From Gammaproteobacteria bacterium (GTDB lineage Bacteria; Pseudomonadota; Gammaproteobacteria; UBA4575), in contig JANQOB010000012.1 in assembly GCA_028279275.1 (NCBI GenBank), forward strand, positions 20,203-84,202: a stretch of DNA of 64,000 nt, read 5' to 3'. The position numbers and the translations under genes were made by a program. Position 1 is the stretch's first letter; the number at the start of each line of letters is the position of its first letter. Under the pieces are notes generated by a model. That model was not told where the DNA came from, searched no databases, and was given only the letters and a program-made list of their open reading frames with translations. Shown here in pieces: positions 3,479 to 38,984 of this stretch.

Positions 3479-4180
3479 ATGCGCATTCATTATCTTAAAC
3501 ATGTCTCTTTTGAAGGTTTGGGTTCTATGGAGAACATGTTTATTGAGCGAGGTTATGATCTATCACGCACCTGTATGTATGAAGACCAATCATTGCCTTC
3601 TATTCATGACATTGATGCGCTGATCATAATGGGCGGACCGATGGGTGTGAATGATGATGATAGCTATCCATGGCTTACCTTGGAAAAAGAATTTATCGAA
3701 TCCGTCATCAAACTCGAAGTTCCCGTATTTGGCGTATGTTTGGGCGCACAACTTATTGCAAATGTATTAGGTGCTCAAGTTACAAAAAATGTACATGAAG
3801 AAATTGGTTGGTTTCCGGTGAATCGTACTAAAGGGCTTATGGACGCAAGAGTGGAAAATCTTCCTACTCGTTTTGATGCACTACATTGGCACGGAGATAC
3901 GTTTGATATACCAGATGGTGCGAGTAATTTTCTTACCAGCGACGGCTGCGCAAATCAGGGTTTTGCCTATGGTGACTCAACACTAGCACTGCAGTTTCAT
4001 TTAGAAATGTTGCCAAGCAATGTAGAAGCAATCTATCAAGAATGTGGCTCCGCTGATAAGAGCGGCCAGTATATTCACGGTTTGGGTGAAATGCTTGCTC
4101 CGGCCGAGAAGTATCAAGAGGCTAATAATGTACTAAAAAACATCCTTGAAACCTTTGTTTTTCAAAAAATGCCCCAATAA
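3479..4180 (+). CDS. Class I glutamine amidotransferase-like protein (GMP synthase-like GATase1 domain only)
   Basis: The GVCLGAQ catalytic-Cys motif and a conserved His near the C-terminus are present. No synthetase domain follows. Confidence 0.7.
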   Translation: MRIHYLKHVSFEGLGSMENMFIERGYDLSRTCMYEDQSLPSIHDIDALIIMGGPMGVNDDDSYPWLTLEKEFIESVIKLEVPVFGVCLGAQLIANVLGAQVTKNVHEEIGWFPVNRTKGLMDARVENLPTRFDALHWHGDTFDIPDGASNFLTSDGCANQGFAYGDSTLALQFHLEMLPSNVEAIYQECGSADKSGQYIHGLGEMLAPAEKYQEANNVLKNILETFVFQKMPQ

Positions 4181-14090: not shown

Positions 14091-14189
14091 ATGTGGATGT
14101 TAGTTGTATTTATGGTTTTGCTAACTTTTGTAGTTAATATTGCTGCGCAATTAAATTTATTTAGTCATCTTAAGAATGGTACATATTAA
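14091..14189 (+). CDS. Unannotated 32-aa hydrophobic peptide (MWMLVVFMVLLTFVVNIAAQLNLFSHLKNGTY)
   Basis: Hand-translated. Strong SD (caAGGAGttcggt ATG). Lies between panC and a terminator hairpin. Single hydrophobic helix. Confidence 0.3.
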   Translation: MWMLVVFMVLLTFVVNIAAQLNLFSHLKNGTY

Positions 14190-14217
14190 TAGCTACCTTC
14201 ATTTTTAAATGAAAATA

Positions 14218-14250
14218 AATAAGGGCGCGAATAGCGCCCTTATTTTTTGC
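14218..14250 (+). terminator. Rho-independent terminator (panBC unit)
   Basis: aagggcgc-gaat-agcgccctt followed by attttttg. Confidence 0.6.
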
Positions 14251-14261
14251 GCTGCTAGAAG

Positions 14262-14385
14262 CCTTGATTTATTCTGGCTACTTCGTTAAAAATCATTTCA
14301 ATTTAGCTCATGTATATATTTATACACATCGCTCATTTCAATATATTTGCCTCATCTCAAAATAAATCAAAACCTCTTTGAGAAT
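14262..14385. repeat. ~125-bp intergenic repeat element, copy 1 (upstream of pgi), with terminal inverted repeats
   Basis: About 80% identical to 25965..26090. Ends ttgatttatt / aataaatcaa are reverse complements of each other. Confidence 0.7.
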
Positions 14386-15933
14386 ATGAGCAGTACAATA
14401 AAAAAATTGTCCTCTTACCAGGTGCTAGCCAAACATTTTGATGATATTAATTCTCATACCTTGCGAGAATTGTTTACGCAAGATGAGGGTCGTTTTTCAA
14501 AGTTTTCGGTGCAATTTGAAGGATTGCTATTTGATTACTCAAAAAACCGTATCACAAAAGATACGGTTGCAAAGCTTATTGCATTGTTTAATGAATGTGA
14601 TGTTGACGCTTGGCGAGAGAAAATGTTTGCGGGCGAAAAAATTAACTCTACAGAGAATCGCGGGGTTCAACACACTGCATTACGCGATTTGGAGAATAAA
14701 AATTCTGAAATTGCGAACAAACAAATAGACGCATTAAAAAAGATAGAATCTTTTATTGCCAAGTTAAAAAAATCAAACATTACTGATGTGGTAAATATTG
14801 GTATTGGAGGTTCTCATCTAGGGCCTCAGTTTGTTTGTGATGCTTTGCGAGAATATTCGAGTTCAAATTTAAATGTTCATTTTGTGGCTAATGTGGATGC
14901 AGAAGAGATTAATCGTGTTCTGGAGACTCTCAATCCAAAAAACACTATGTTTATAGTCACTTCTAAGAGTTTTACCACTCAAGAAACTTTAACTAATTCA
15001 ATAACTGCAAGATCTTGGTTAGCATTAGATATAAATCTTAAAAATCAAGATCATTTTGTTGCTGTTACTGCAAATGTAAAAAAAGCCACTGAATTTGGCA
15101 TTGCAGAAGAAAATATTTTTCCCATGTGGGATGAAATAGGTGGGCGCTATTCACTCTGGTCTGCTGTTGGTTTATCTATAGCGGTAAAAATTGGAATGGA
15201 GAACTTTAGAGAACTTCTAAAAGGGGCGCATGCAATGGATCAGCATTTTTTTGATACGCCAGCAGATGAAAACATCCCAGTACTAATGGCTTTACTGGAT
15301 ATTTGGAACCAGCATTTTCTGAATACAACAGCGCATGCCATTCTTCCTTATGACGTTCGTTTAACCTACTTACCGGCTTATTTGCAGCAACTGGTAATGG
15401 AGAGTAATGGTAAGTCAGTAGACCGACAGGGAAATAAATTAGCTGTGGCAAGCTCGGCTATTTTGTTTGGTGATGTTGGAACAAATGCGCAACATAGTTT
15501 TTTCCAATTATTGCATCAGGGTACACAGCTGGTGAGCTGTGACTTTATAGGTATAGCAAAACCCTCTCATGATAATTATGCACAGCATGAAATTTTGCTT
15601 GCGAACATGATTGGTCAAACACAAGCTTTGATGATGGGGCAAAGTTTAGAAGAGGCGGGTGATGAACATAAAGTTTTTTCTGGAAATCGAGCTAGTAATA
15701 CAATTTTCTTATCACAACTGACTCCTTATTCACTCGGCATGTTGTTAGCCATATATGAACACAGAACGTTTGTTCATGGAGCATTATTGAATATCAATTC
15801 CTTTGATCAGATGGGAGTTGAGTTGGGTAAACGACTGGCAAATAAATTGCTCGATAAAATCCGAAACGAGTCTGTAACCGGAGAAGACTCATCCACCAGT
15901 GGCTTGATCGACTTTTATAAACAGAATAATTAG
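14386..15933 (+). CDS. pgi: Glucose-6-phosphate isomerase (likely start MSSTIKKL; track ORF begins 13 codons earlier inside the repeat element)
   Basis: PGI family sequence with [ST]IG..GGRYSLWSAVG motifs, ~515 aa. Confidence 0.9.
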   Translation: MSSTIKKLSSYQVLAKHFDDINSHTLRELFTQDEGRFSKFSVQFEGLLFDYSKNRITKDTVAKLIALFNECDVDAWREKMFAGEKINSTENRGVQHTALRDLENKNSEIANKQIDALKKIESFIAKLKKSNITDVVNIGIGGSHLGPQFVCDALREYSSSNLNVHFVANVDAEEINRVLETLNPKNTMFIVTSKSFTTQETLTNSITARSWLALDINLKNQDHFVAVTANVKKATEFGIAEENIFPMWDEIGGRYSLWSAVGLSIAVKIGMENFRELLKGAHAMDQHFFDTPADENIPVLMALLDIWNQHFLNTTAHAILPYDVRLTYLPAYLQQLVMESNGKSVDRQGNKLAVASSAILFGDVGTNAQHSFFQLLHQGTQLVSCDFIGIAKPSHDNYAQHEILLANMIGQTQALMMGQSLEEAGDEHKVFSGNRASNTIFLSQLTPYSLGMLLAIYEHRTFVHGALLNINSFDQMGVELGKRLANKLLDKIRNESVTGEDSSTSGLIDFYKQNN

Positions 15934-16994
15934 CTTTGCTGGTGCTGCTCTAAAGCCCATTCGGCATGCTCTCTCACTAATTCGCTTGAATGATTTAGCT
16001 TTTCTTTTAGCGCATGAATTACGCTAGGTGTGCTGGGTGCATTGCCCAAGGCCACGGCAATGTTTCGTAACCAGCATTCATAGTCTATGCGCCGAATAGC
16101 CGAACCCTCGGTATTATCTAAGAATTCTTTTTCGCTCCAATTAAATAAGGCAATCAACTCAGGTGCGTCTAAATTATTTCGTACTGCGAAATCTGCAAGC
16201 TCACTTTTTTGTTCAAAACGATTCCATGGGCAATACAGTTGACAATCATCACAACCATAAATCCTATTCCCCATCGCTTTTCTGAACTCAATTGGAATGG
16301 ATCCCTTTAATTCAATCGTGTGATAAGAAATACAGCGGCGTGCATCTAATTTATACGGTGCAATAATCGCTTGAGTTGGACAGGCATCCATACATGTTCG
16401 ACATGTTCCGCAGTGGTTTTCTACAGGGGTGTCTATTGGTAAGGGGAGGTCGGTATAGAGTTCGCCAAGAAAAAACCATGAACCACATTCTTTATTAATT
16501 AAATTAGTATGTTTGCCAATCCAGCCAAGTCCTGCTTTTTCTGCTAGGGCTTTTTCCAATACTGGCGCGCTGTCGACAAATGCGCGGTAACCAAATGGAC
16601 CTACTTCATTAGCAATTTTGTCTGCAAGTTTTTGCAAGCGCTTTCGTATTACTTTGTGATAGTCGCGCCCTAGTGCATAACGGGAGATGTATGCTTGTTC
16701 ATAATTATTTAATACATCTTCTTCATTTGCTGCATCAGGAGCTTGATAATTTATGCGAGTAGAAATAATGCGAATTGTTCCGGGAATTAATTTTTCTGGT
16801 CGAGATCGCTTTGTGCCATGCTGATCCATAAAGTGCATTTCTCCATGGTAGCCTGCTTCTAACCAGTTCATTAAGTGTGTTTCATGTTCGCTTAGCTCGG
16901 TATTAGTAATTCCAATTTCGTCAAAGCCTAATGCACTACCCCATGCTCTGATATCTTGAGCAAGTTTTGCAAAATCGGTAGTAACGCTATTCAT
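15930..16994 (-). CDS. queG: Epoxyqueuosine reductase QueG
   Basis: 4Fe-4S ferredoxin motif CGTCRTCMDACPT and a cobalamin-binding N-terminal region. Convergent with pgi, overlapping it by 4 nt. Confidence 0.9.
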   Translation of the reverse strand: MNSVTTDFAKLAQDIRAWGSALGFDEIGITNTELSEHETHLMNWLEAGYHGEMHFMDQHGTKRSRPEKLIPGTIRIISTRINYQAPDAANEEDVLNNYEQAYISRYALGRDYHKVIRKRLQKLADKIANEVGPFGYRAFVDSAPVLEKALAEKAGLGWIGKHTNLINKECGSWFFLGELYTDLPLPIDTPVENHCGTCRTCMDACPTQAIIAPYKLDARRCISYHTIELKGSIPIEFRKAMGNRIYGCDDCQLYCPWNRFEQKSELADFAVRNNLDAPELIALFNWSEKEFLDNTEGSAIRRIDYECWLRNIAVALGNAPSTPSVIHALKEKLNHSSELVREHAEWALEQHQQS

Positions 16995-24143: not shown

Positions 24144-25958
24144 ATGACAACTATACAACAACTACCTTCTCAATTAATTAATCAAATTGCTGCTGGCGAG
24201 GTGATTGAACGCCCAGCTTCTGTATTGAAAGAGTTACTTGAAAATGCCCTTGATGCTGGTGCAAGTAAGATAATCGTAGAGTTAGACCAGGGTGGAATGC
24301 AGTGCATTCGTGTAAGTGATAACGGTGTTGGAATTGATAAAAGTGAATTGCATATGGCGCTCATGCGTCATGCCACAAGCAAGATTTCATCAATGGAGGA
24401 TTTAGAGAACATTACAACCTTAGGCTTTCGTGGTGAGGCATTACCAAGTATAGCGTCGGTCTCAAGATTTAGTATTGCATCGAATAACAGTGATGACGGT
24501 AATGCAGGATGGGTAATTACTGCAGATGGGGGAGAGTTAGATGATGAGGTTATTCCTGTTCGTCAGATGCATGGCACAACCGTAGAGGTTAAAGATTTAT
24601 TTTTTAATGTACCTGCACGCAAAAAATTTCTGCGCACTGAAAAGACAGAATTAAAACATTGCGACAGTGTCATTCGAAAAATTGCACTATCATGTTTCAA
24701 TGTTCAAATAATTGTCAAACACAATGGTCGGAATACATTAGATATCAGTGCAAGTGATTTTTTTGAAAATGGTACCAATCGTGTGGCCGAAGTTAGTGGG
24801 AAACAATTTGCCGAACAAAGTATCTATTTGGAGAACACAGCACATGAAATGCAAGTTCAGGGTTGGATTAGTTTACCCACCTTTTCTCGTAGCCAGGCTG
24901 ATTTACAATACTTTTACGTGAATGGTCGCGCTATTCGTGACAAAGTGATTTCACATGCGATTAAGCAAGCATATCAAGATGTGTTGTACCACGGTCGGTT
25001 TCCAGCATTTGTATTATTTTTAGAAATGGATCCAGCACAGGTAGATGTAAACGCACATCCTACTAAACATGAAGTGCGATTTCGTCAAAGTCGCTATGTG
25101 CATGACTTCATTCGCCATACCGTGAGAAAAGCCATCGCAGAGACAATGCCTAAACAGGAACAACAAGCTGCTGAACAATATCGAGAAATTGTCGATGACT
25201 ACATTCGTGCAGCACAAAGTCAGAGCGTGTCAACAGAACAGTCTTATGCACATAGAGAATCTGTTTCGTATTCTCATGTAAATGAGCCTGTTCACAGTTA
25301 TGGCGCACAATCATTAAATGAATATGCTTTGTTGTTGAAAACCCCTCCTGAGGAAAAACACACCACAGAAGAAGCTCCGCCTTTGGGTTTTGCTATCGAA
25401 CAGTTACATGGTATTTATATTTTGGCACAAAATGCAAATGGCCTAGTCATTGTAGACATGCATGCTGCACATGAAAGAATTGTGTATGAAAAACTTAAAG
25501 CATCTTATAAGCAAGGTGATTTAGCTACCCAGCCATTATTGGTGCCAATTACTATCAATGTAAGTTCACAAGAAGCTGCCATTGCAGAGCAACATCGCGA
25601 TATATTTTTAAAATTTGGTTTTGATATCGAGCGTTTTGGTGAAGATAGTATTGTTGTGCGTGAGATTCCATCTCTATTGCAACAAGCCGACGTTAATACA
25701 TTAGTACTCGATGTACTATCAGATTTAAATATGTATGGTAGTACTGAAAAATTAGAAGAAGCAAAAAATGAACTCTTGTCTACAATGGCGTGTTATGGAT
25801 CTGTGCGTGCGCATAGAAAACTTACACTAGCAGAAATGAATGCACTGCTTCGTGAAATGGAAAATACTGAAAGAAGTGCACAATGTAATCATGGACGACC
25901 TACTTGGGTTCAATTGAGTATTGAGCAGCTTGATAAACTTTTCAAACGCGGTCAGTGA
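24144..25958 (+). CDS. mutL: DNA mismatch repair protein MutL
   Basis: GHKL ATPase N-terminus (IAAGEVIERPASVLKELLENALDAG) and a C-terminal dimerisation domain. Confidence 0.95.
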   Translation: MTTIQQLPSQLINQIAAGEVIERPASVLKELLENALDAGASKIIVELDQGGMQCIRVSDNGVGIDKSELHMALMRHATSKISSMEDLENITTLGFRGEALPSIASVSRFSIASNNSDDGNAGWVITADGGELDDEVIPVRQMHGTTVEVKDLFFNVPARKKFLRTEKTELKHCDSVIRKIALSCFNVQIIVKHNGRNTLDISASDFFENGTNRVAEVSGKQFAEQSIYLENTAHEMQVQGWISLPTFSRSQADLQYFYVNGRAIRDKVISHAIKQAYQDVLYHGRFPAFVLFLEMDPAQVDVNAHPTKHEVRFRQSRYVHDFIRHTVRKAIAETMPKQEQQAAEQYREIVDDYIRAAQSQSVSTEQSYAHRESVSYSHVNEPVHSYGAQSLNEYALLLKTPPEEKHTTEEAPPLGFAIEQLHGIYILAQNANGLVIVDMHAAHERIVYEKLKASYKQGDLATQPLLVPITINVSSQEAAIAEQHRDIFLKFGFDIERFGEDSIVVREIPSLLQQADVNTLVLDVLSDLNMYGSTEKLEEAKNELLSTMACYGSVRAHRKLTLAEMNALLREMENTERSAQCNHGRPTWVQLSIEQLDKLFKRGQ

Positions 25959-25964
25959 ATAAAG

Positions 25965-26090
25965 CCCTGATTTAATCTGATTACTTTGTTAAAAATTTTC
26001 TCGTACTCGCTCATGTATGTATTTATACACTATGCTCGTCTCGAAAATTTTTGCCTCGTCTCAAATTAAATCAGAACTTTTTTGAATTTT
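25965..26090. repeat. ~125-bp intergenic repeat element, copy 2 (upstream of miaA)
   Basis: About 80% identical to 14262..14385. Ends ctgatttaatctga / tcaaattaaatcag, an inverted repeat whose base changes between the two copies are compensatory. Confidence 0.7.
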
Positions 26091-27020
26091 GTGAAAAATT
26101 CTCGCGTCATTTGTGTAATGGGTCCTACAGCGAGTGGCAAGACTGATCTCGCGCTAACCATTGCTGATGAATTTCCTTGTGATTTGATAAGTGTTGATTC
26201 AGTGATGATCTACCGTGGCTTGGACATAGGCTCTGCTAAGCCAAGTTCAGAAGTGTTGCAAAAATATCCACATCAGTTAATTGATATAATAAATCCAGAG
26301 GAAAGCTATTCGGTCGCAAATTTTTGTGAGAATGCTTTGTATTTCATAAAAAAATCACATAGTAAGAATAGAATTCCTCTTTTAGTAGGTGGCACGATGC
26401 TATACTTCAATGCACTTCTTCATGGTTTATCTGATATGCCAAGCGCCAATGAAGAAGTTAGAAAAGAAATTACCGAACGTGCAAACGAAAAAGGTTGGGA
26501 CTATGTACATGCACAACTTGTAGAAGTTGATCCGCAAGCTGCGGCAAGAATACACCCTAATGATCCTCAGCGTATTCAACGCGCGATGGAAGTGTATGAA
26601 TTAACAGGCAGGCCTTTAAGTGAATGGCATAGTGAGGCTAAAGCAGTTCAATTTCCTTATGAAGTATTAAAGCTTGCATTGATCCCAAATGATCGAGCTG
26701 TTTTACATGAGCAGATTGAGCGAAGATTTGATCAAATGATGCAGGCAGGGTTCATGGAAGAAACACAGCAGTTATATGAGCGCAAATCGCTACACGCTGA
26801 TTTGCCCTCGATGCGTTCGGTTGGTTACCGGCAGGCATGGAAGTATTTTGCTGGAGAATATGATGCTGAAACAATGAAAGAGAAGGCAATTATAGCTACA
26901 AGACAATTTGCAAAGCGTCAACTTACATGGTTACGTAGTGAAGCAGATTTAGTTACGATTTCGGCTGAAAAACCTGATATTCATGACATTCGTCAAGAAA
27001 TATCCAGATTTTTAGCGTAG
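26082..27020 (+). CDS. miaA: tRNA dimethylallyltransferase (start uncertain: track uses TTG; GTG at ~26091 gives MKNSRVICVMGPTASGKT)
   Basis: P-loop GPTASGKT and MiaA-family length. Confidence 0.9.
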   Translation: MNFVKNSRVICVMGPTASGKTDLALTIADEFPCDLISVDSVMIYRGLDIGSAKPSSEVLQKYPHQLIDIINPEESYSVANFCENALYFIKKSHSKNRIPLLVGGTMLYFNALLHGLSDMPSANEEVRKEITERANEKGWDYVHAQLVEVDPQAAARIHPNDPQRIQRAMEVYELTGRPLSEWHSEAKAVQFPYEVLKLALIPNDRAVLHEQIERRFDQMMQAGFMEETQQLYERKSLHADLPSMRSVGYRQAWKYFAGEYDAETMKEKAIIATRQFAKRQLTWLRSEADLVTISAEKPDIHDIRQEISRFLA

Positions 27021-28757: not shown

Positions 28758-29915
28758 TTGGAGAGCAATATGCCTTGGAACAGCCCAGGCGATGATAATA
28801 AAAACAAGGATCCATGGGGTCAGAACTCAGGGAATCAAGGTCCTCCTGATCTTGATGATGTTTTTCGTAACCTAAGCAAGAAATTTGGTGGGATTTTTGG
28901 CGGTGGATCGTCATCTGGAGGCTCTGGATCAGACGGCAAGCCTATTCTGCTTTTCATACTTATTGCAGCAATTGCTTTATGGGGTTTGTATGACAGGTTT
29001 GGTTTTTATGTTGTTAAGCAGGCAGAAAGAGGTGTCGAATTGCGTTTTGGTGAATTTCAAGAAATTACCAGCGCAGGTTTAAATTGGCATTTACCTTTCC
29101 CTATTGAAACTGTTGAAATTGTAAATGTTGATGAAGTACGTGAAGTTTCAAACCGTACCTCAATGCTGACACAGGATGAAAACATAGTAGAAGTTTCATT
29201 AGAGGCTCAATACAAAATTGGCGATGCTAAAGATTATGTCTTCAATGTTCGTGACCCTGATCAAACTGTTAAAGATGCCATGGAGAGTGCATTACGTGAG
29301 ATTGTCGGCAAAAGTAATATTGATTTTGTTTTGTTTGAAGGCCGTGCACAAATTTCTAGTGTCACAAGAGAATTACTACAAGAAATTCTAGATAGCTATA
29401 ATTCTGGAATTTTTATTCAAAAAGTAAACTTAGAGAGATCAGTTCCGCCAGACGCAGTTAAAGCTGCGTTTGATGATGCGATCAAATCTCGTGAAGATTT
29501 CAATCGCTTTATAAAAGAAGCTGAAGCTTATGCAAATAGCATACTTCCTCAGGCACGAGGTGAGGCTGCAAGGTTGTTACAAGAAGCAGATGCTTACAGA
29601 GATCGAGTTATTGCAAACTCTGAAGGTGAGGCAAAAAGATTTTTAAAGCTTTTAGCAGAATATGAAAAGGCTCCTGAAGTCACTCGTGAGCGTTTATATT
29701 TAGAGGCACTTGAATCTGTATATATGAATAGCAATAAAGTGTTAATGGATGTAGAAGGAGGAAATAACCTTTTATATCTCCCACTCGACCAAATAATAAA
29801 ACAACGTTCTTTGACAAATCCTCTTAGCACCTCAAGTGACACTTTTACCAGCGATAACTTTGGTTTAAGTGATCAGCCAGTAAACCCTGACAGCTCTATC
29901 CGACAAGGACGTTAA
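28758..29915 (+). CDS. hflK: FtsH modulator HflK
   Basis: Gly-rich N-terminus, one TM helix, and a band-7/SPFH domain. Confidence 0.9.
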   Translation: MESNMPWNSPGDDNKNKDPWGQNSGNQGPPDLDDVFRNLSKKFGGIFGGGSSSGGSGSDGKPILLFILIAAIALWGLYDRFGFYVVKQAERGVELRFGEFQEITSAGLNWHLPFPIETVEIVNVDEVREVSNRTSMLTQDENIVEVSLEAQYKIGDAKDYVFNVRDPDQTVKDAMESALREIVGKSNIDFVLFEGRAQISSVTRELLQEILDSYNSGIFIQKVNLERSVPPDAVKAAFDDAIKSREDFNRFIKEAEAYANSILPQARGEAARLLQEADAYRDRVIANSEGEAKRFLKLLAEYEKAPEVTRERLYLEALESVYMNSNKVLMDVEGGNNLLYLPLDQIIKQRSLTNPLSTSSDTFTSDNFGLSDQPVNPDSSIRQGR

Positions 29916-35731: not shown

Positions 35732-37984
35732 ATGCCTCGCAAAAAAAAGAAAAAATTAATCGATCCCTACGCTAAACGCGAGGCTTCTAAGTATGAACAA
35801 CCGATTGCCAGTCGGGAGTTAGTTTTGCAAATACTTGAGCAAAGTGATGGACCTCTATCGCTGAGCGCATTGCATGAGGTATTAGATATCAATTCTGAAG
35901 AAGTGATTGATGCACTTGCAAGACGTTTAGCCGCTATGGAACGGGATGGTCAAATTATTCGCAATCGTCAAAATCATTATTTACCAATTTCAAAAGTTGA
36001 TTTAGTGCGTGGGCGTGTGATGGGACATCCTGATGGGTTTGGATTTTTAATTCCAGATGAAGGTGGAGAGGATTTATTTTTACCTCCTTATGAAATGCGT
36101 ACGCTAATGCATGGTGATCGTGCAGTAGTTCGTCCCGCGGGTAAATCTAAACGCGGTAAGTTACAGGGCAAATTAGTAGAAATTATTGAGCGTAATAATA
36201 AGCAAATCGTTGGCCGCTACTATAAAGAATCTGGCATCGGGTTTGTTGTGCCAGATAACAAACGCCTTAGTCAGGACGTAATGATCCCTGCCAAAAATTC
36301 TATGCAAGCTACAAGTGGGCAATTTGTTGTGGCATCTATCCTCGAGCAACCCAATAAATTTCGTCAACCGATAGGAAAAGTGATAGAAGTTATAGGTGAT
36401 CATCTCGCACCAGGTATGGAAATTGATGTTGCTATCCGCTCATATGATCTACCCTATAAATGGAATGACGAAGTCCTTCAGCAAGTTGAAAAATTTAGTC
36501 AAGATGATATTCAGCAACAGCTTAAGCACCGAAAAGATTTACGAGAATTACATTTTGTTACTATTGATGGTAGTGATGCAAAAGACTTCGATGATGCAGT
36601 ATATTGTGAGGCTCGTGATAATGGTTGGCGTTTATGGGTTGCTATTGCAGATGTGTCCCATTATGTAGAACTCGATTCAGCCCTTGATCTTGAAGCACGC
36701 AACCGTGGCACCTCAGTGTATTTCCCAGAGCGTGTCATTCCTATGTTACCGGAAGCACTATCTAATGAGTTATGTTCTTTAAGGCCTGAAGTAGATCGTC
36801 TTTGTATGGTTTGTGAGATGTTCATAAATCAAAGCGGCGAATTAAAAAGCTATAAATTTTATGATGCAGTAATGCGTTCATCAGCGAGACTGACCTATGA
36901 TGAAGTGCAAAAAATACTGTATGAAAAAGATAAAAAAGCTAGGGAGCAAAATGAACATTTGCTAAATGACTTAGAAAATTTGCAAGCTGTTTATAATTCT
37001 TTACGTAAGCAACGCAAAAAACGCGGAGCTATTGATTTTGATACTAAAGAAACTTTATTTGAATTTGATGATGATAAAAAAATAAAAGCCATTCTGCCGC
37101 GAGAGCGATTCCAGGCGCACATGATTATTGAAGAATGCATGATAGTGGCTAATGTTGCGGCGGCAAAATTCATTACGCGTGAAAAATTACCTACATTATT
37201 CCGTGTGCATGAAGAACCCACAGCTGAAAAATTACGTGATATGCGTGAATTTCTTGAGTCATTAGGTGTTGGGTTTAGTAAAGCTAAAAAACCTGGACCT
37301 AGTGACTACATGGCAGTGATAAAAAAGGTTGGCTTGCGTAAAGATAAGCATATTATTGAGATGATGTTGTTAAGATCCATGGCGCAGGCCGTTTACAGTC
37401 CTGATAGCATTGGCCATTTTGGTCTAGCACTTTCCTTATATGCACATTTTACTTCTCCTATTCGGCGTTATCCTGATCTCGTGGTGCATCGAACGATTCG
37501 TCATTTGCTTGCTGGTGAAAATAAGGCTTCTTTCCCTCTTTCGCAGAATGATTTGGTGTTACTTGGTGAGCATTGCTCAATGTGTGAACGACGTGCAGAT
37601 GATGCAACGCGCGATGTGGATGCCTGGCTAAAATGTGAATTTATGTTGGATAAAATTGGGAAAGAATTTGATGGTGTAATCACATCGGTTACCGCATTTG
37701 GTTTCTTTGTGATGTTGAATAATTATTTTGTTGAAGGATTAGTGCATGTCACTACATTGAAAAGTGACTATTATCATTTTGATGAGCAATCACACTGTTT
37801 ATTTGGTGAGCGAAGTAAGACTCGTTATGGTTTGGGGGATGAAGTAAAAATAACTGTCGCAAGAGTGAGTTTAGATGAGCGAAAAATGGATTTTTCATTG
37901 TCTCAAATTGACGATAGAAATATACATCGCTCTAAGCAATTCAAGCCAAAAACCTCGAAGAAGAAAAGAAAAAAAATTAAATAA
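35732..37984 (+). CDS. rnr: Ribonuclease R
   Basis: RNB catalytic domain, S1 domain, and Lys-rich termini. 750 aa. Confidence 0.95.
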   Translation: MPRKKKKKLIDPYAKREASKYEQPIASRELVLQILEQSDGPLSLSALHEVLDINSEEVIDALARRLAAMERDGQIIRNRQNHYLPISKVDLVRGRVMGHPDGFGFLIPDEGGEDLFLPPYEMRTLMHGDRAVVRPAGKSKRGKLQGKLVEIIERNNKQIVGRYYKESGIGFVVPDNKRLSQDVMIPAKNSMQATSGQFVVASILEQPNKFRQPIGKVIEVIGDHLAPGMEIDVAIRSYDLPYKWNDEVLQQVEKFSQDDIQQQLKHRKDLRELHFVTIDGSDAKDFDDAVYCEARDNGWRLWVAIADVSHYVELDSALDLEARNRGTSVYFPERVIPMLPEALSNELCSLRPEVDRLCMVCEMFINQSGELKSYKFYDAVMRSSARLTYDEVQKILYEKDKKAREQNEHLLNDLENLQAVYNSLRKQRKKRGAIDFDTKETLFEFDDDKKIKAILPRERFQAHMIIEECMIVANVAAAKFITREKLPTLFRVHEEPTAEKLRDMREFLESLGVGFSKAKKPGPSDYMAVIKKVGLRKDKHIIEMMLLRSMAQAVYSPDSIGHFGLALSLYAHFTSPIRRYPDLVVHRTIRHLLAGENKASFPLSQNDLVLLGEHCSMCERRADDATRDVDAWLKCEFMLDKIGKEFDGVITSVTAFGFFVMLNNYFVEGLVHVTTLKSDYYHFDEQSHCLFGERSKTRYGLGDEVKITVARVSLDERKMDFSLSQIDDRNIHRSKQFKPKTSKKKRKKIK

Positions 37985-38730
37985 TGAAAAATTTATCTTT
38001 TGGGTTCTATAGCTGTTTAGCTGCAGTACAGGATCGACCTTTCCATATTAAAGAAGTGTGCTTATTAGATGGTAAAAAAGATAAACGACTTCAACTACTC
38101 AAAAATGAGATTACTGCTAATAATCTTGCCCACCGTTTTATAAATAAAAATGAACTCGAGCTACTGTGCGGGGTAAAAAATCATCAAGGGGTAGTGGTGA
38201 TTTACAAACAGCAACAAACATATAGTGAAGCGGCATTATTAGATTATTGTGCTTCAGCTACTGAGCCATTATTGCTTTTGGTACTGGATCAAATTGTTGA
38301 TCCACATAATTTAGGAGCATGTTTGCGTACTGCAGAAGCTGCGGGCGTGAATGCTGTTATCAGCTCGACACGAAAGTCTGCACCGCTTACACCAACGGTA
38401 CGTAAGGTTGCTTGCGGAGCCGCTGAACGAATACCGCTAATTTTTGCTAAAAATCTCGTGCGGTTTTTAGGCGAGCTCAAACAACTTGGAATATGGGTTT
38501 ATGGTACACAACCCACGGCGAGTAAATTGCTCTATGAGACTGATTTTTGTCGTTCCATGGCGTTGGTAATTGGTGCAGAGGGTAAGGGCATGCGTCGTCT
38601 CGTGAGCGAAAAATGTGATGAACTATTGCGCATGCCGATGTCTGGAGAAATGGCGAGCTTAAATGCTTCCGTTGCGGCGGGTATTGGTTTATTTGAGGCA
38701 GTACGCCAGCGTAGTAGCACGAAGCTCTAA
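37984..38730 (+). CDS. rlmB: 23S rRNA (guanosine2251-2'-O)-methyltransferase RlmB (SpoU family)
   Basis: SpoU motifs (LVLDQIVDPHNLGACLRTA, LVIGAEGKGM), immediately after rnr as in E. coli. Confidence 0.85.
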   Translation: MKNLSFGFYSCLAAVQDRPFHIKEVCLLDGKKDKRLQLLKNEITANNLAHRFINKNELELLCGVKNHQGVVVIYKQQQTYSEAALLDYCASATEPLLLLVLDQIVDPHNLGACLRTAEAAGVNAVISSTRKSAPLTPTVRKVACGAAERIPLIFAKNLVRFLGELKQLGIWVYGTQPTASKLLYETDFCRSMALVIGAEGKGMRRLVSEKCDELLRMPMSGEMASLNASVAAGIGLFEAVRQRSSTKL

Positions 38731-38984
38731 TATCATCTGATCTTGCGTTAAAATATGTCGTCAAAATACTCATTTGCTTGGATGTAAACTCCGTTTTTAC
38801 GCCATATTTTGCCTAAGCTCAGAAGATATTAGAGCTCCTTATGGGTAGAGGTGTGCGAGATTTCGTGCTTCTGCTTGCTAGAAATCTGGGCATCACGTAG
38901 ACTTCGCGGCTCAAAATTTGTAACTCCTTGCTTCACTGGGGCGTAATTGTCACCAGGAGGCTTAAACCCAAAGGGAGCATATAT

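Follow-up and report, generated by a model that had tools for sequence, protein, structure and literature searches.

To our knowledge, more than 30 years after MITEs of the ERIC and Correia type were first described, neither their transposase nor the reason why they are conserved has been explained, and Correia elements have been reported from Neisseria only. ERIC (IRU, 127 bp) is an imperfect palindrome over its whole length with a well-conserved centre, has TA ends and duplicates a TA target (PMC2759123), occupies intergenic or 3′ sites within transcription units in several bacterial families, and in a Yersinia study is reported to affect mRNA decay (PMC10969869). The Correia elements (CREE/NEMIS) are TA-duplicating MITEs of 70–157 bp with a directional conserved core; their hairpin is transcribed and cleaved by RNase III, and they often directly adjoin genes (PMC2649163, PMC10969869). 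REP/BIME sequences are transcribed palindromes at gene 3′ ends and inside operons, with an orientation tied to transcription, and mRNA 3′-end protection and partial termination have been proposed as their roles (PMC3733652). The small MITE QMITE2 of Coxiella lies mainly in 3′ UTRs and overlaps the last codons of genes (PMC5896051).

The segment upstream of pgi in the 64-kb window (the whole stretch of DNA that was analysed, 64,000 nucleotides) is a non-autonomous, TA-duplicating palindromic element, a MITE of the ERIC/Correia/YPAL kind. The window carries three copies, listed below with P as the orientation of the window + strand and M as its reverse complement; R1 is a covariance model built from the family alignment.

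14258–14376, + strand: copy 1, P orientation, from TIR to TIR, flanked by TA (14256–14257) and TT (14377–14378)
14277–14356, − strand: conserved core of copy 1 (model R1, 63.6 bits, E 5e-10)
14310–14327: apical hairpin of copy 1 (TGTAT/ATACA stem, 6-nt loop)
25962–26079, + strand: copy 2, P orientation, flanked by TA (25960–25961) and TT (26080–26081)
25980–26060, − strand: conserved core of copy 2 (model R1, 73.5 bits, E 7e-12)
26013–26030: apical hairpin of copy 2
38719–38840, + strand: copy 3, P orientation, more diverged, with its core at 38739–38818

The preliminary description had an element present twice, at 14262–14385 and 25965–26090. Both ranges entered the downstream leader by a few bases, and the third copy has to be added. 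Its estimate of about 80% identity between the first two copies was accurate: blastn within the window gave 78% over 123 nt (E 4.8e-23) with no further match to either copy by simple similarity, and an alignment of 14240–14400 with 25945–26105 gave 83% mean column identity. Both copies were also correctly described as lying on the + strand between + strand genes. The right end of copy 1 falls 9 nt short of the pgi ATG. Copy 2 starts 3 nt past the mutL stop codon (25956–25958) and ends 11 nt before the miaA GTG (26091–26093), mutL and miaA being identified by Pfam matches on the identical locus L004. The core of copy 3 scored 53.6 bits (E 5e-8) with a covariance model built without that copy, and its left inverted repeat forms the last codons and the TAA stop (38728–38730) of the ORF at 37984–38730.

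The window copies are 118–122 bp long with inverted repeats of 15–25 nt. The terminal inverted repeats noted earlier are real, and the palindrome in fact spans the whole element, each copy being a single long imperfect palindrome. On the − strand, copy 1 (14257–14378) folds at −31.9 kcal/mol (z −4.8) and copy 2 (25961–26081) at −41.6 kcal/mol (z −9.5); the folds of copy 3 have z values of −6.7 and −7.4. The closing pair of the apical hairpin of copy 1 is A·C on the + strand, which corresponds to G·U on the − strand. A further match of model R1 at 29625–29655 (17.4 bits, E 0.39) lies inside the hflK coding sequence and was set aside as a chance match; this segment resembles GAGGCAAAAA/TTTTTAA, the outer motifs, but lacks the hairpin.

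Copy 1 occupies the region between a terminator-like site and pgi:

14217–14249, no strand assigned: terminator-like site, a GC-rich hairpin followed by a T-run (AAGGGCGCGAATAGCGCCCTTATTTTTT)
14386–15933, + strand: pgi coding sequence from the conserved ATG (515 aa, PF00342, from the database protein for the same genome)

As the preliminary description stated, the automated pgi ORF begins inside the element (TTG 14347), whereas pgi homologues align from the ATG at 14386, the real start. The terminator-like hairpin lies between a small ORF and copy 1, and nothing but the element separates the hairpin from the pgi start codon. The small ORF, located between panC and pgi at 14091–14189, encodes 32 hydrophobic amino acids (MWMLVVFMVLLTFVVNIAAQLNLFSHLKNGTY); both it and the hairpin are kept in four relatives with saturated synonymous sites. 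At its 3′ end (+ strand, 15933), pgi overlaps a convergent queG-like ORF (− strand, 15930–16994) by 4 nt. Copy 1 holds the sequence TTTATA-17-TATATT, and its orthologue in the relative L121 has TATAAT at the equivalent place. A promoter scan of copy 1 returned two sites against 2.3 in shuffled sequence, which is the chance level, and gave no candidate promoter in copies 2 and 3.

An exact look-up of the window Hfq sequence retrieved the same contig and nine related contigs. At the mutL–miaA junction, a related element was present in three relatives and a longer variant with a related centre in three, and two (L009, L010) had an empty spacer of 25–35 bp. A search pattern taken from the shared centre, GTTAAAAA N12–20 CTCATGTA N6–8 ATACAC, found 110 stretches among 185,579 species genomes, with at least 15 loci from one MAG, and the covariance model confirmed 118 + 29 copies in the loci retrieved, the divergent mutL–miaA variants among them. 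The family was found at about 110 loci in Gamma- and Betaproteobacteria. By record title, its hosts are Oceanospirillales-type genera (Thalassolituus, Bermanella, Oceaniserpentilla, Oceanobacter, Oleiphilaceae), Cellvibrionaceae, Arenicellales, Thiotrichales, Methylophilaceae (Methylotenera, Methylophilus), and many gammaproteobacterial MAGs. Among the carriers are the cultured strains Methylophilus sp. 42, Thalassolituus alkanivorans TMPB967, and Oceaniserpentilla sp. 4NH20-0058.

The family alignment comprises 89 distinct copies in P orientation, and model R1 was built from it. The terminal inverted repeats vary by lineage, and a core of about 80 nt is common to the family: GTTAAAAA, a helix, CTCATGTAT-N5–7-ATACAC, the helix partner, and TTTTTGCCT, read on the window + strand as GTTAAAAA...CTCATGTAT...ATACAC...TTTGCCT. 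In the 89 copies the 5′ half runs from a lineage-specific outer arm through YGTTAAAAA, the inner arm, and sC TCA TGTAT to a loop of 5–7 nt; the 3′ half continues with ATACA CTsC Gs, the inner arm partner, TTTTTGCCTYG, and the outer arm partner. GTT, AAAA, CTCATGTA, ATACAC, and GCCT are invariant or nearly so. The tandem CTC(A/G)TCTCAAA motif of the preliminary description turned out to be a likeness of the 3′ inner arm to the 3′ outer arm that is confined to a subfamily. The idea that the invariant ATG opens a conserved small ORF was ruled out because loop length and indels shift the frame.

Two variants of the core were observed. At two different loci (L123 2862–2910; L008 ~3650–3690), the 5′ inner arm harbours an additional small hairpin (..GTATGC, stem, TTTGYAGGAGCAAAA, stem partner), which may be another mobile hairpin of smaller size or a branch specific to a subfamily. 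An insertion of about 45 nt (GGCTTCCTGCGTCGCTCTACCTCCTGCGTCCATGCAGTCGTC) in the 3′ half of the core is common to copies from three different genomes (L046 3182–3308, L084 2222–2348, and L096 486–612).

The family shares with ERIC its size of about 120–130 bp, the palindrome over the whole length with a well-conserved centre, the TA ends and TA duplication, and the placement in transcription units across several bacterial families. It differs in that it was seen in other hosts and not in E. coli, and in that its core is bracketed by A5/T5 tracts; membership in ERIC, defined by the central GTGAATCCCCAGGAGCTTACAT/AAGTAAGTGACTGGGGTGAGCG, was rejected, since R1 reached 6.8 bits on an E. coli ERIC copy (E 0.44 in 644 nt) with no alignment. 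The resemblance to Correia elements extends to short motifs in the same order and orientation, namely TACGGCGTT and GCCTTGTC, at the left and right junctions respectively, and an apical GTAC-TATTT-GTAC hairpin (CREE sequences from PMC2649163, supplement 1), but the 26-bp Correia repeat is absent from the family. Judged against shuffles, alignments of the Correia core reached z values of 1.7–2.8 when both sequences had the same orientation and about 0 when one was reverse-complemented, and none of the pairs was convincing by itself; nhmmer against the short CREE targets gave no match, and the IHF consensus WATCAANNNNTTR had no match in the 89 copies. The sequence case for distant homology to Correia is therefore marginal, neither shown nor excluded.

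Other described repeats fit less well. REPs share the transcribed palindromes, the 3′-end and operon positions, and the link between orientation and transcription, but they are 20–40 bp long, carry GTAG/CGTC tags, depend on RAYT single-strand transposases, and have neither TIRs nor a TA duplication; the long TIRs and TA duplication of our element and its lack of a GTAG/CGTC tag exclude REP/REPIN membership. QMITE2 resembles it in being a small MITE over the last codons of genes, yet is 150–190 bp long, is reported from Coxiella only, has direct repeats of 7–11 nt with variable sequence, and shows no TA duplication and no shared core; on size and direct repeats both QMITE1 and QMITE2 were rejected. 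YPAL/RU-2 and RU-3 (sequences in PMC2759123) showed no resemblance, and the Thiomargarita MITEs, compared by description only, have TATAG direct repeats. Integron attC sites (RYYYAAC...GTTRRRY) were discarded because GTTAAAAA is internal and stands before its partner, and because the copies are solitary between housekeeping genes. Spacing or order did not fit a LexA box, a dif site, or a k-turn. Rfam 15 had no match at the gathering score in the window and nothing credible at E ≤ 10 for copy 2 or at E ≤ 1 for five strong members. Literature searches by topic and motif returned no description of the family; their coverage was incomplete, so an earlier description is possible.

The suggestion that the segment is a MITE-like mobile element was borne out by the dispersed copies, their presence or absence at orthologous sites, and a TA target-site duplication. 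Four copies lie within 7.5 kb of the relative L122, as against one at the corresponding place in the window, which indicates a burst of insertions in the L122 lineage. The three extra copies of L122, absent from the window, all lie with P on the + strand of their locus:

L122 700–870, + strand: extra copy between dNK and panB
L122 1655–1800, + strand: extra copy between panB and panC
L122 5637–5797, + strand: extra copy at queG/yjeF

The orthologous sites of all three are empty in the window and other relatives, as is the mutL–miaA site in L009 and L010. In the filled/empty comparisons at dNK–panB, panB–panC, and queG/yjeF, a single TA at the empty site corresponds to a TA on both sides of the filled one. 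At dNK–panB the filled site reads GGT TA (GAAAGCTCTGATTTA...TAAATCAGAGCTTTC) TA ATTTAAATAAG and the empty site GGTTAATAAATAAATC, or in short GGT TA (GAAAGC...GCTTTC) TA ATTT as against GGTTAAT, and the filled site reconstructs exactly. TA stands on both flanks in most copies of two subfamilies. It often belongs to a stop codon, which the first purine of the element then restores as TAA or TAG; 12 of 38 group-A copies have a stop codon made up exactly of the flanking TA and element base 1. We conclude from the TA target-site duplication at filled and empty sites that the element is a MITE of the ERIC/Correia kind, and from the observations as a whole that the family consists of TA-duplicating MITEs with a covarying hairpin.

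In about 1 Mb of locus sequence, a search for a transposase or parent IS found no matching ends 0.7–3 kb apart and no repeated IS-sized segment, and a plasmid search matched no plasmid carrier. Two pattern matches in IMG/VR lie in an ORF and fail the covariance model; we regard them as chance matches, and the two contigs calibrate the chance rate of the search pattern.

The element follows an orientation and stop-codon rule. Between co-directional genes, 51 copies were P-sense, with the weaker-folding strand in the mRNA, and 14 had the opposite orientation (crude ORF calls; copies phylogenetically non-independent). The P-sense copies lay at a median of −1 nt from the upstream stop codon, 43 of 51 within about 10 nt, as against a median of 28 nt for the 14 opposite copies (p 0.001). 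Of 109 loci, 80 had P as the G-rich strand, as did 11 of 14 convergent sites; GC skew agrees in direction with the orientation bias, yet is confounded with gene direction.

Copies at orthologous sites are strongly conserved. The pgi-upstream copy is found at the same place in four relatives (L121–L124) and is kept in 4 of 5 genomes. Between the window and L121, L122, and L123, element identity was 91%, 86%, and 89%, with 62%, 34%, and 37% at four-fold sites (L121 forming the closest pair) and 87%, 75%, and 74% over the pgi coding DNA. The mutL–miaA elements of L001, L003, and L028 were 90–96% identical pairwise with 32–39% at four-fold sites, and the panB–panC elements of L122 and L123 were 88% identical with 41%. 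At mutL–miaA the element is a local peak of identity equal to the start of hfq. Orthologous copies were more alike than paralogues within one genome (78–83%) and had locus-specific sequence lacking in their own paralogues, at identical insertion points and beside saturated synonymous sites. The earlier note's alternative of an element absent or unconserved in close relatives was thus not borne out. The most diverged pgi-upstream copy, that of L124 (76%; ~2900–2990), has its apical hairpin deleted between CGCTCAT direct repeats, which are present in both halves. Copy 2 of the window is only 64–68% identical to the same-site copy in the closest relative and has therefore undergone turnover; it was apparently replaced or converted in the lineage of the window. 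That other copy is kept at 90–96% in three more distant genomes. The comparison covered L001 8831–8958, L003 4026–4152, and L028 6824–6951. The comparisons show that retained copies are not decaying and are under purifying selection on both pairing and sequence. With conservation at about the level of hfq, these copies appear to be needed by the host.

The preliminary description took base differences between the two inverted repeats as compensatory. Such changes are present in the outer stem (T/A vs C/G at the first pair, T/A vs A/T within TTTATT/TTTAAT), and the proposed selection on pairing gains family-wide support. With 22 base pairs defined on the reverse-complement alignment, 92.7% of cells were paired, compared with 79.4% in shuffles and 30–62% in slid controls, and 290 cells were changed on both sides, compared with 96 ± 14 and 30–66, respectively. 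Compensatory changes occurred in 11 of the 22 pairs and were present among orthologues too. The caveat of just two copies with no covariation beyond the ends has thereby fallen away, far more copies having been found.

The two strands do not fold equally well. M was the better-folding strand in 80 of 88 copies, with means of −43.0 kcal/mol for M and −35.2 kcal/mol for P (p 3e-14), and the RNAalifold consensus was −13.2 kcal/mol on M and −1.5 kcal/mol on P. Counts of G·U and A·C on the M strand were 156:37, or 67:37 without the invariant closing pair. Internal loops on the M strand were conserved and purine-rich, with tandem GA/GA in 51 of 89 copies, also GNA/GA, and a bulged A. Because M held the advantage for both gene directions (38 of 40 copies one way, 10 of 11 the other), the asymmetry is intrinsic to the element, not a by-product of transcription-linked mutation. 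The inner hairpin, bracketed by A5 and T5–6, has a length of about 52 nt, is rich in A+U, and is broken up by internal loops; the apical loop is variable in length and sequence. An intrinsic terminator was rejected as the identity of the element on account of this long, A+U-rich, interrupted hairpin and of a scan that found no terminator inside the three window copies. Sigma-70 promoter-like sites had no fixed position and no positional peak on either strand of the 89 copies. The preliminary proposals of a 5′-UTR or small RNA and of a regulatory cassette are accordingly unsupported as properties of the family; a local leader or promoter role at pgi is possible.

We favour, at a probability of roughly 55%, the reading that the element is a MITE kept in place because it works in cis as a hairpin where genes adjoin. 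A transposase acting in trans, which the TA duplication suggests to be of the IS630/Tc1-mariner-like type, would insert the element at TA dinucleotides, often at a stop-codon TA within a short intergenic spacer, where the first purine restores the stop. As the unit folds back on itself, the flanking sequences would stay adjacent in the transcript, and insertions would be tolerated. Retained copies would then act as cis hairpins at gene or operon junctions. In the common orientation the mRNA would carry the weaker-folding strand, so that transcription and translation could continue into pgi or miaA–hfq while the upstream message gained a structured 3′ region. The opposite orientation would give the mRNA a far more stable hairpin with a U-run behind it and would be selected against.

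Several observations sit uneasily with this cis-hairpin reading. The core outlasts the TIRs across lineages, the reverse of what transposase binding alone would give. The better-folding strand, with its purine-rich loops and invariant G·U, is usually antisense, which a simple mRNA-hairpin role leaves unexplained. Identity of 90–96% over the full 128 nt exceeds the need of pairing alone, and copy 1, which comes after a terminator and not after a translated gene, is not directly covered by the junction model. The antisense-strand fold features, the persistence of the core beyond the TIRs, and the conservation of whole copies keep alive a reading that we hold only tentatively, in which the ~80-nt core is a structured nucleic-acid module recognised by a conserved host factor; MITEs with interchangeable ends would have spread this core to stop-codon-proximal sites in operons, where it is constrained as strongly as hfq. 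The A5/T5-bracketed helices, tandem G·A loops, invariant G·U, and GUGUAU/AUACAU apical stem of the core recur from Methylophilaceae to Thiotrichales-like lineages. It is doubtful that the M strand gives rise to a structured RNA, antisense or small, that a conserved protein binds at the core, with the MITE merely as its vehicle. The 80 of 88 better folds and their mean energies, the RNAalifold energies, the G·U excess (156:37, or 67:37 without the invariant pair), the tandem GA/GA and GNA/GA loops and bulged A, the independence from gene orientation, and the orthologue conservation at the level of hfq all speak for such an RNA. It is opposed by the lack of a fixed-position promoter-like site on either strand of the 89 copies, by the lack of an Rfam match, by the variable length and sequence of the apical loop, and by the stop-codon placement, which links the element to the sense transcript; moreover, the asymmetry lies mostly at invariant positions and could reflect master-copy inheritance instead of selection. 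A DNA-level role, as a cruciform or single-stranded hairpin for a DNA-binding or processing protein (a transposition intermediate, replication, or nucleoid organisation), appears improbable. The palindrome over the whole element with conserved mismatch positions and the conserved core with variable ends would suit it, and the preference of P for the G-rich strand (80 of 109 loci, 11 of 14 convergent sites) would be in keeping with a bias linked to replication, but that GC skew is confounded with gene direction, which the stop-codon placement follows. A TA duplication, moreover, is characteristic of enzymes that cut and paste double-stranded DNA; single-strand transposases of the IS200/IS605 type do not duplicate their target and do not require terminal inverted repeats.

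Local exaptation, with copy 1 as the promoter or leader of pgi and copy 2 carrying signals for miaA–hfq, is likewise an unlikely explanation. It draws on the terminator-like hairpin just 5′ of copy 1, with the element filling the space to the ATG, on TTTATA-17-TATATT and the TATAAT of L121, on the position of both copies 9–11 nt from a start codon, and on the retention of the pgi copy in 4 of 5 genomes; yet the promoter scan stands at the shuffle level (2 vs 2.3), the −35 candidate sits in the apical loop and is different in L122 and L123, copies 2 and 3 are without a candidate promoter, and the family has no positional promoter signal. There is little chance that the element is a purely selfish MITE without host function, its conservation being due to recent spread or re-insertion. 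The typical MITE anatomy and TA duplication, the strong differences in copy number among relatives, and the turnover of copy 2 (64–68% against the same-site copy of the closest relative) would be expected of such an element. Orthologues with locus-specific sequence at identical insertion points despite saturated synonymous sites would not, and insertion at random would not be expected to produce the orientation bias or the position at stop codons; nor was a phage or plasmid carrier found, the two viral matches failing the model.

For annotation, the element matters because it leads to wrong start calls, as at pgi, and supplies stop codons to upstream genes. Were the recognised-module reading of the core true, the family would be a mobile, orientation-dependent regulatory element and not a decaying parasite, and would possibly itself be the broader family that takes in the Correia elements of Neisseria. 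With its filled and empty sites, elements 85–96% identical beside saturated synonymous sites, strand asymmetry, and stop-codon and orientation rule, it provides a case independent of ERIC and Correia for the question of why such MITEs are conserved, and since it is present in cultured strains, that question is open to experimental test.
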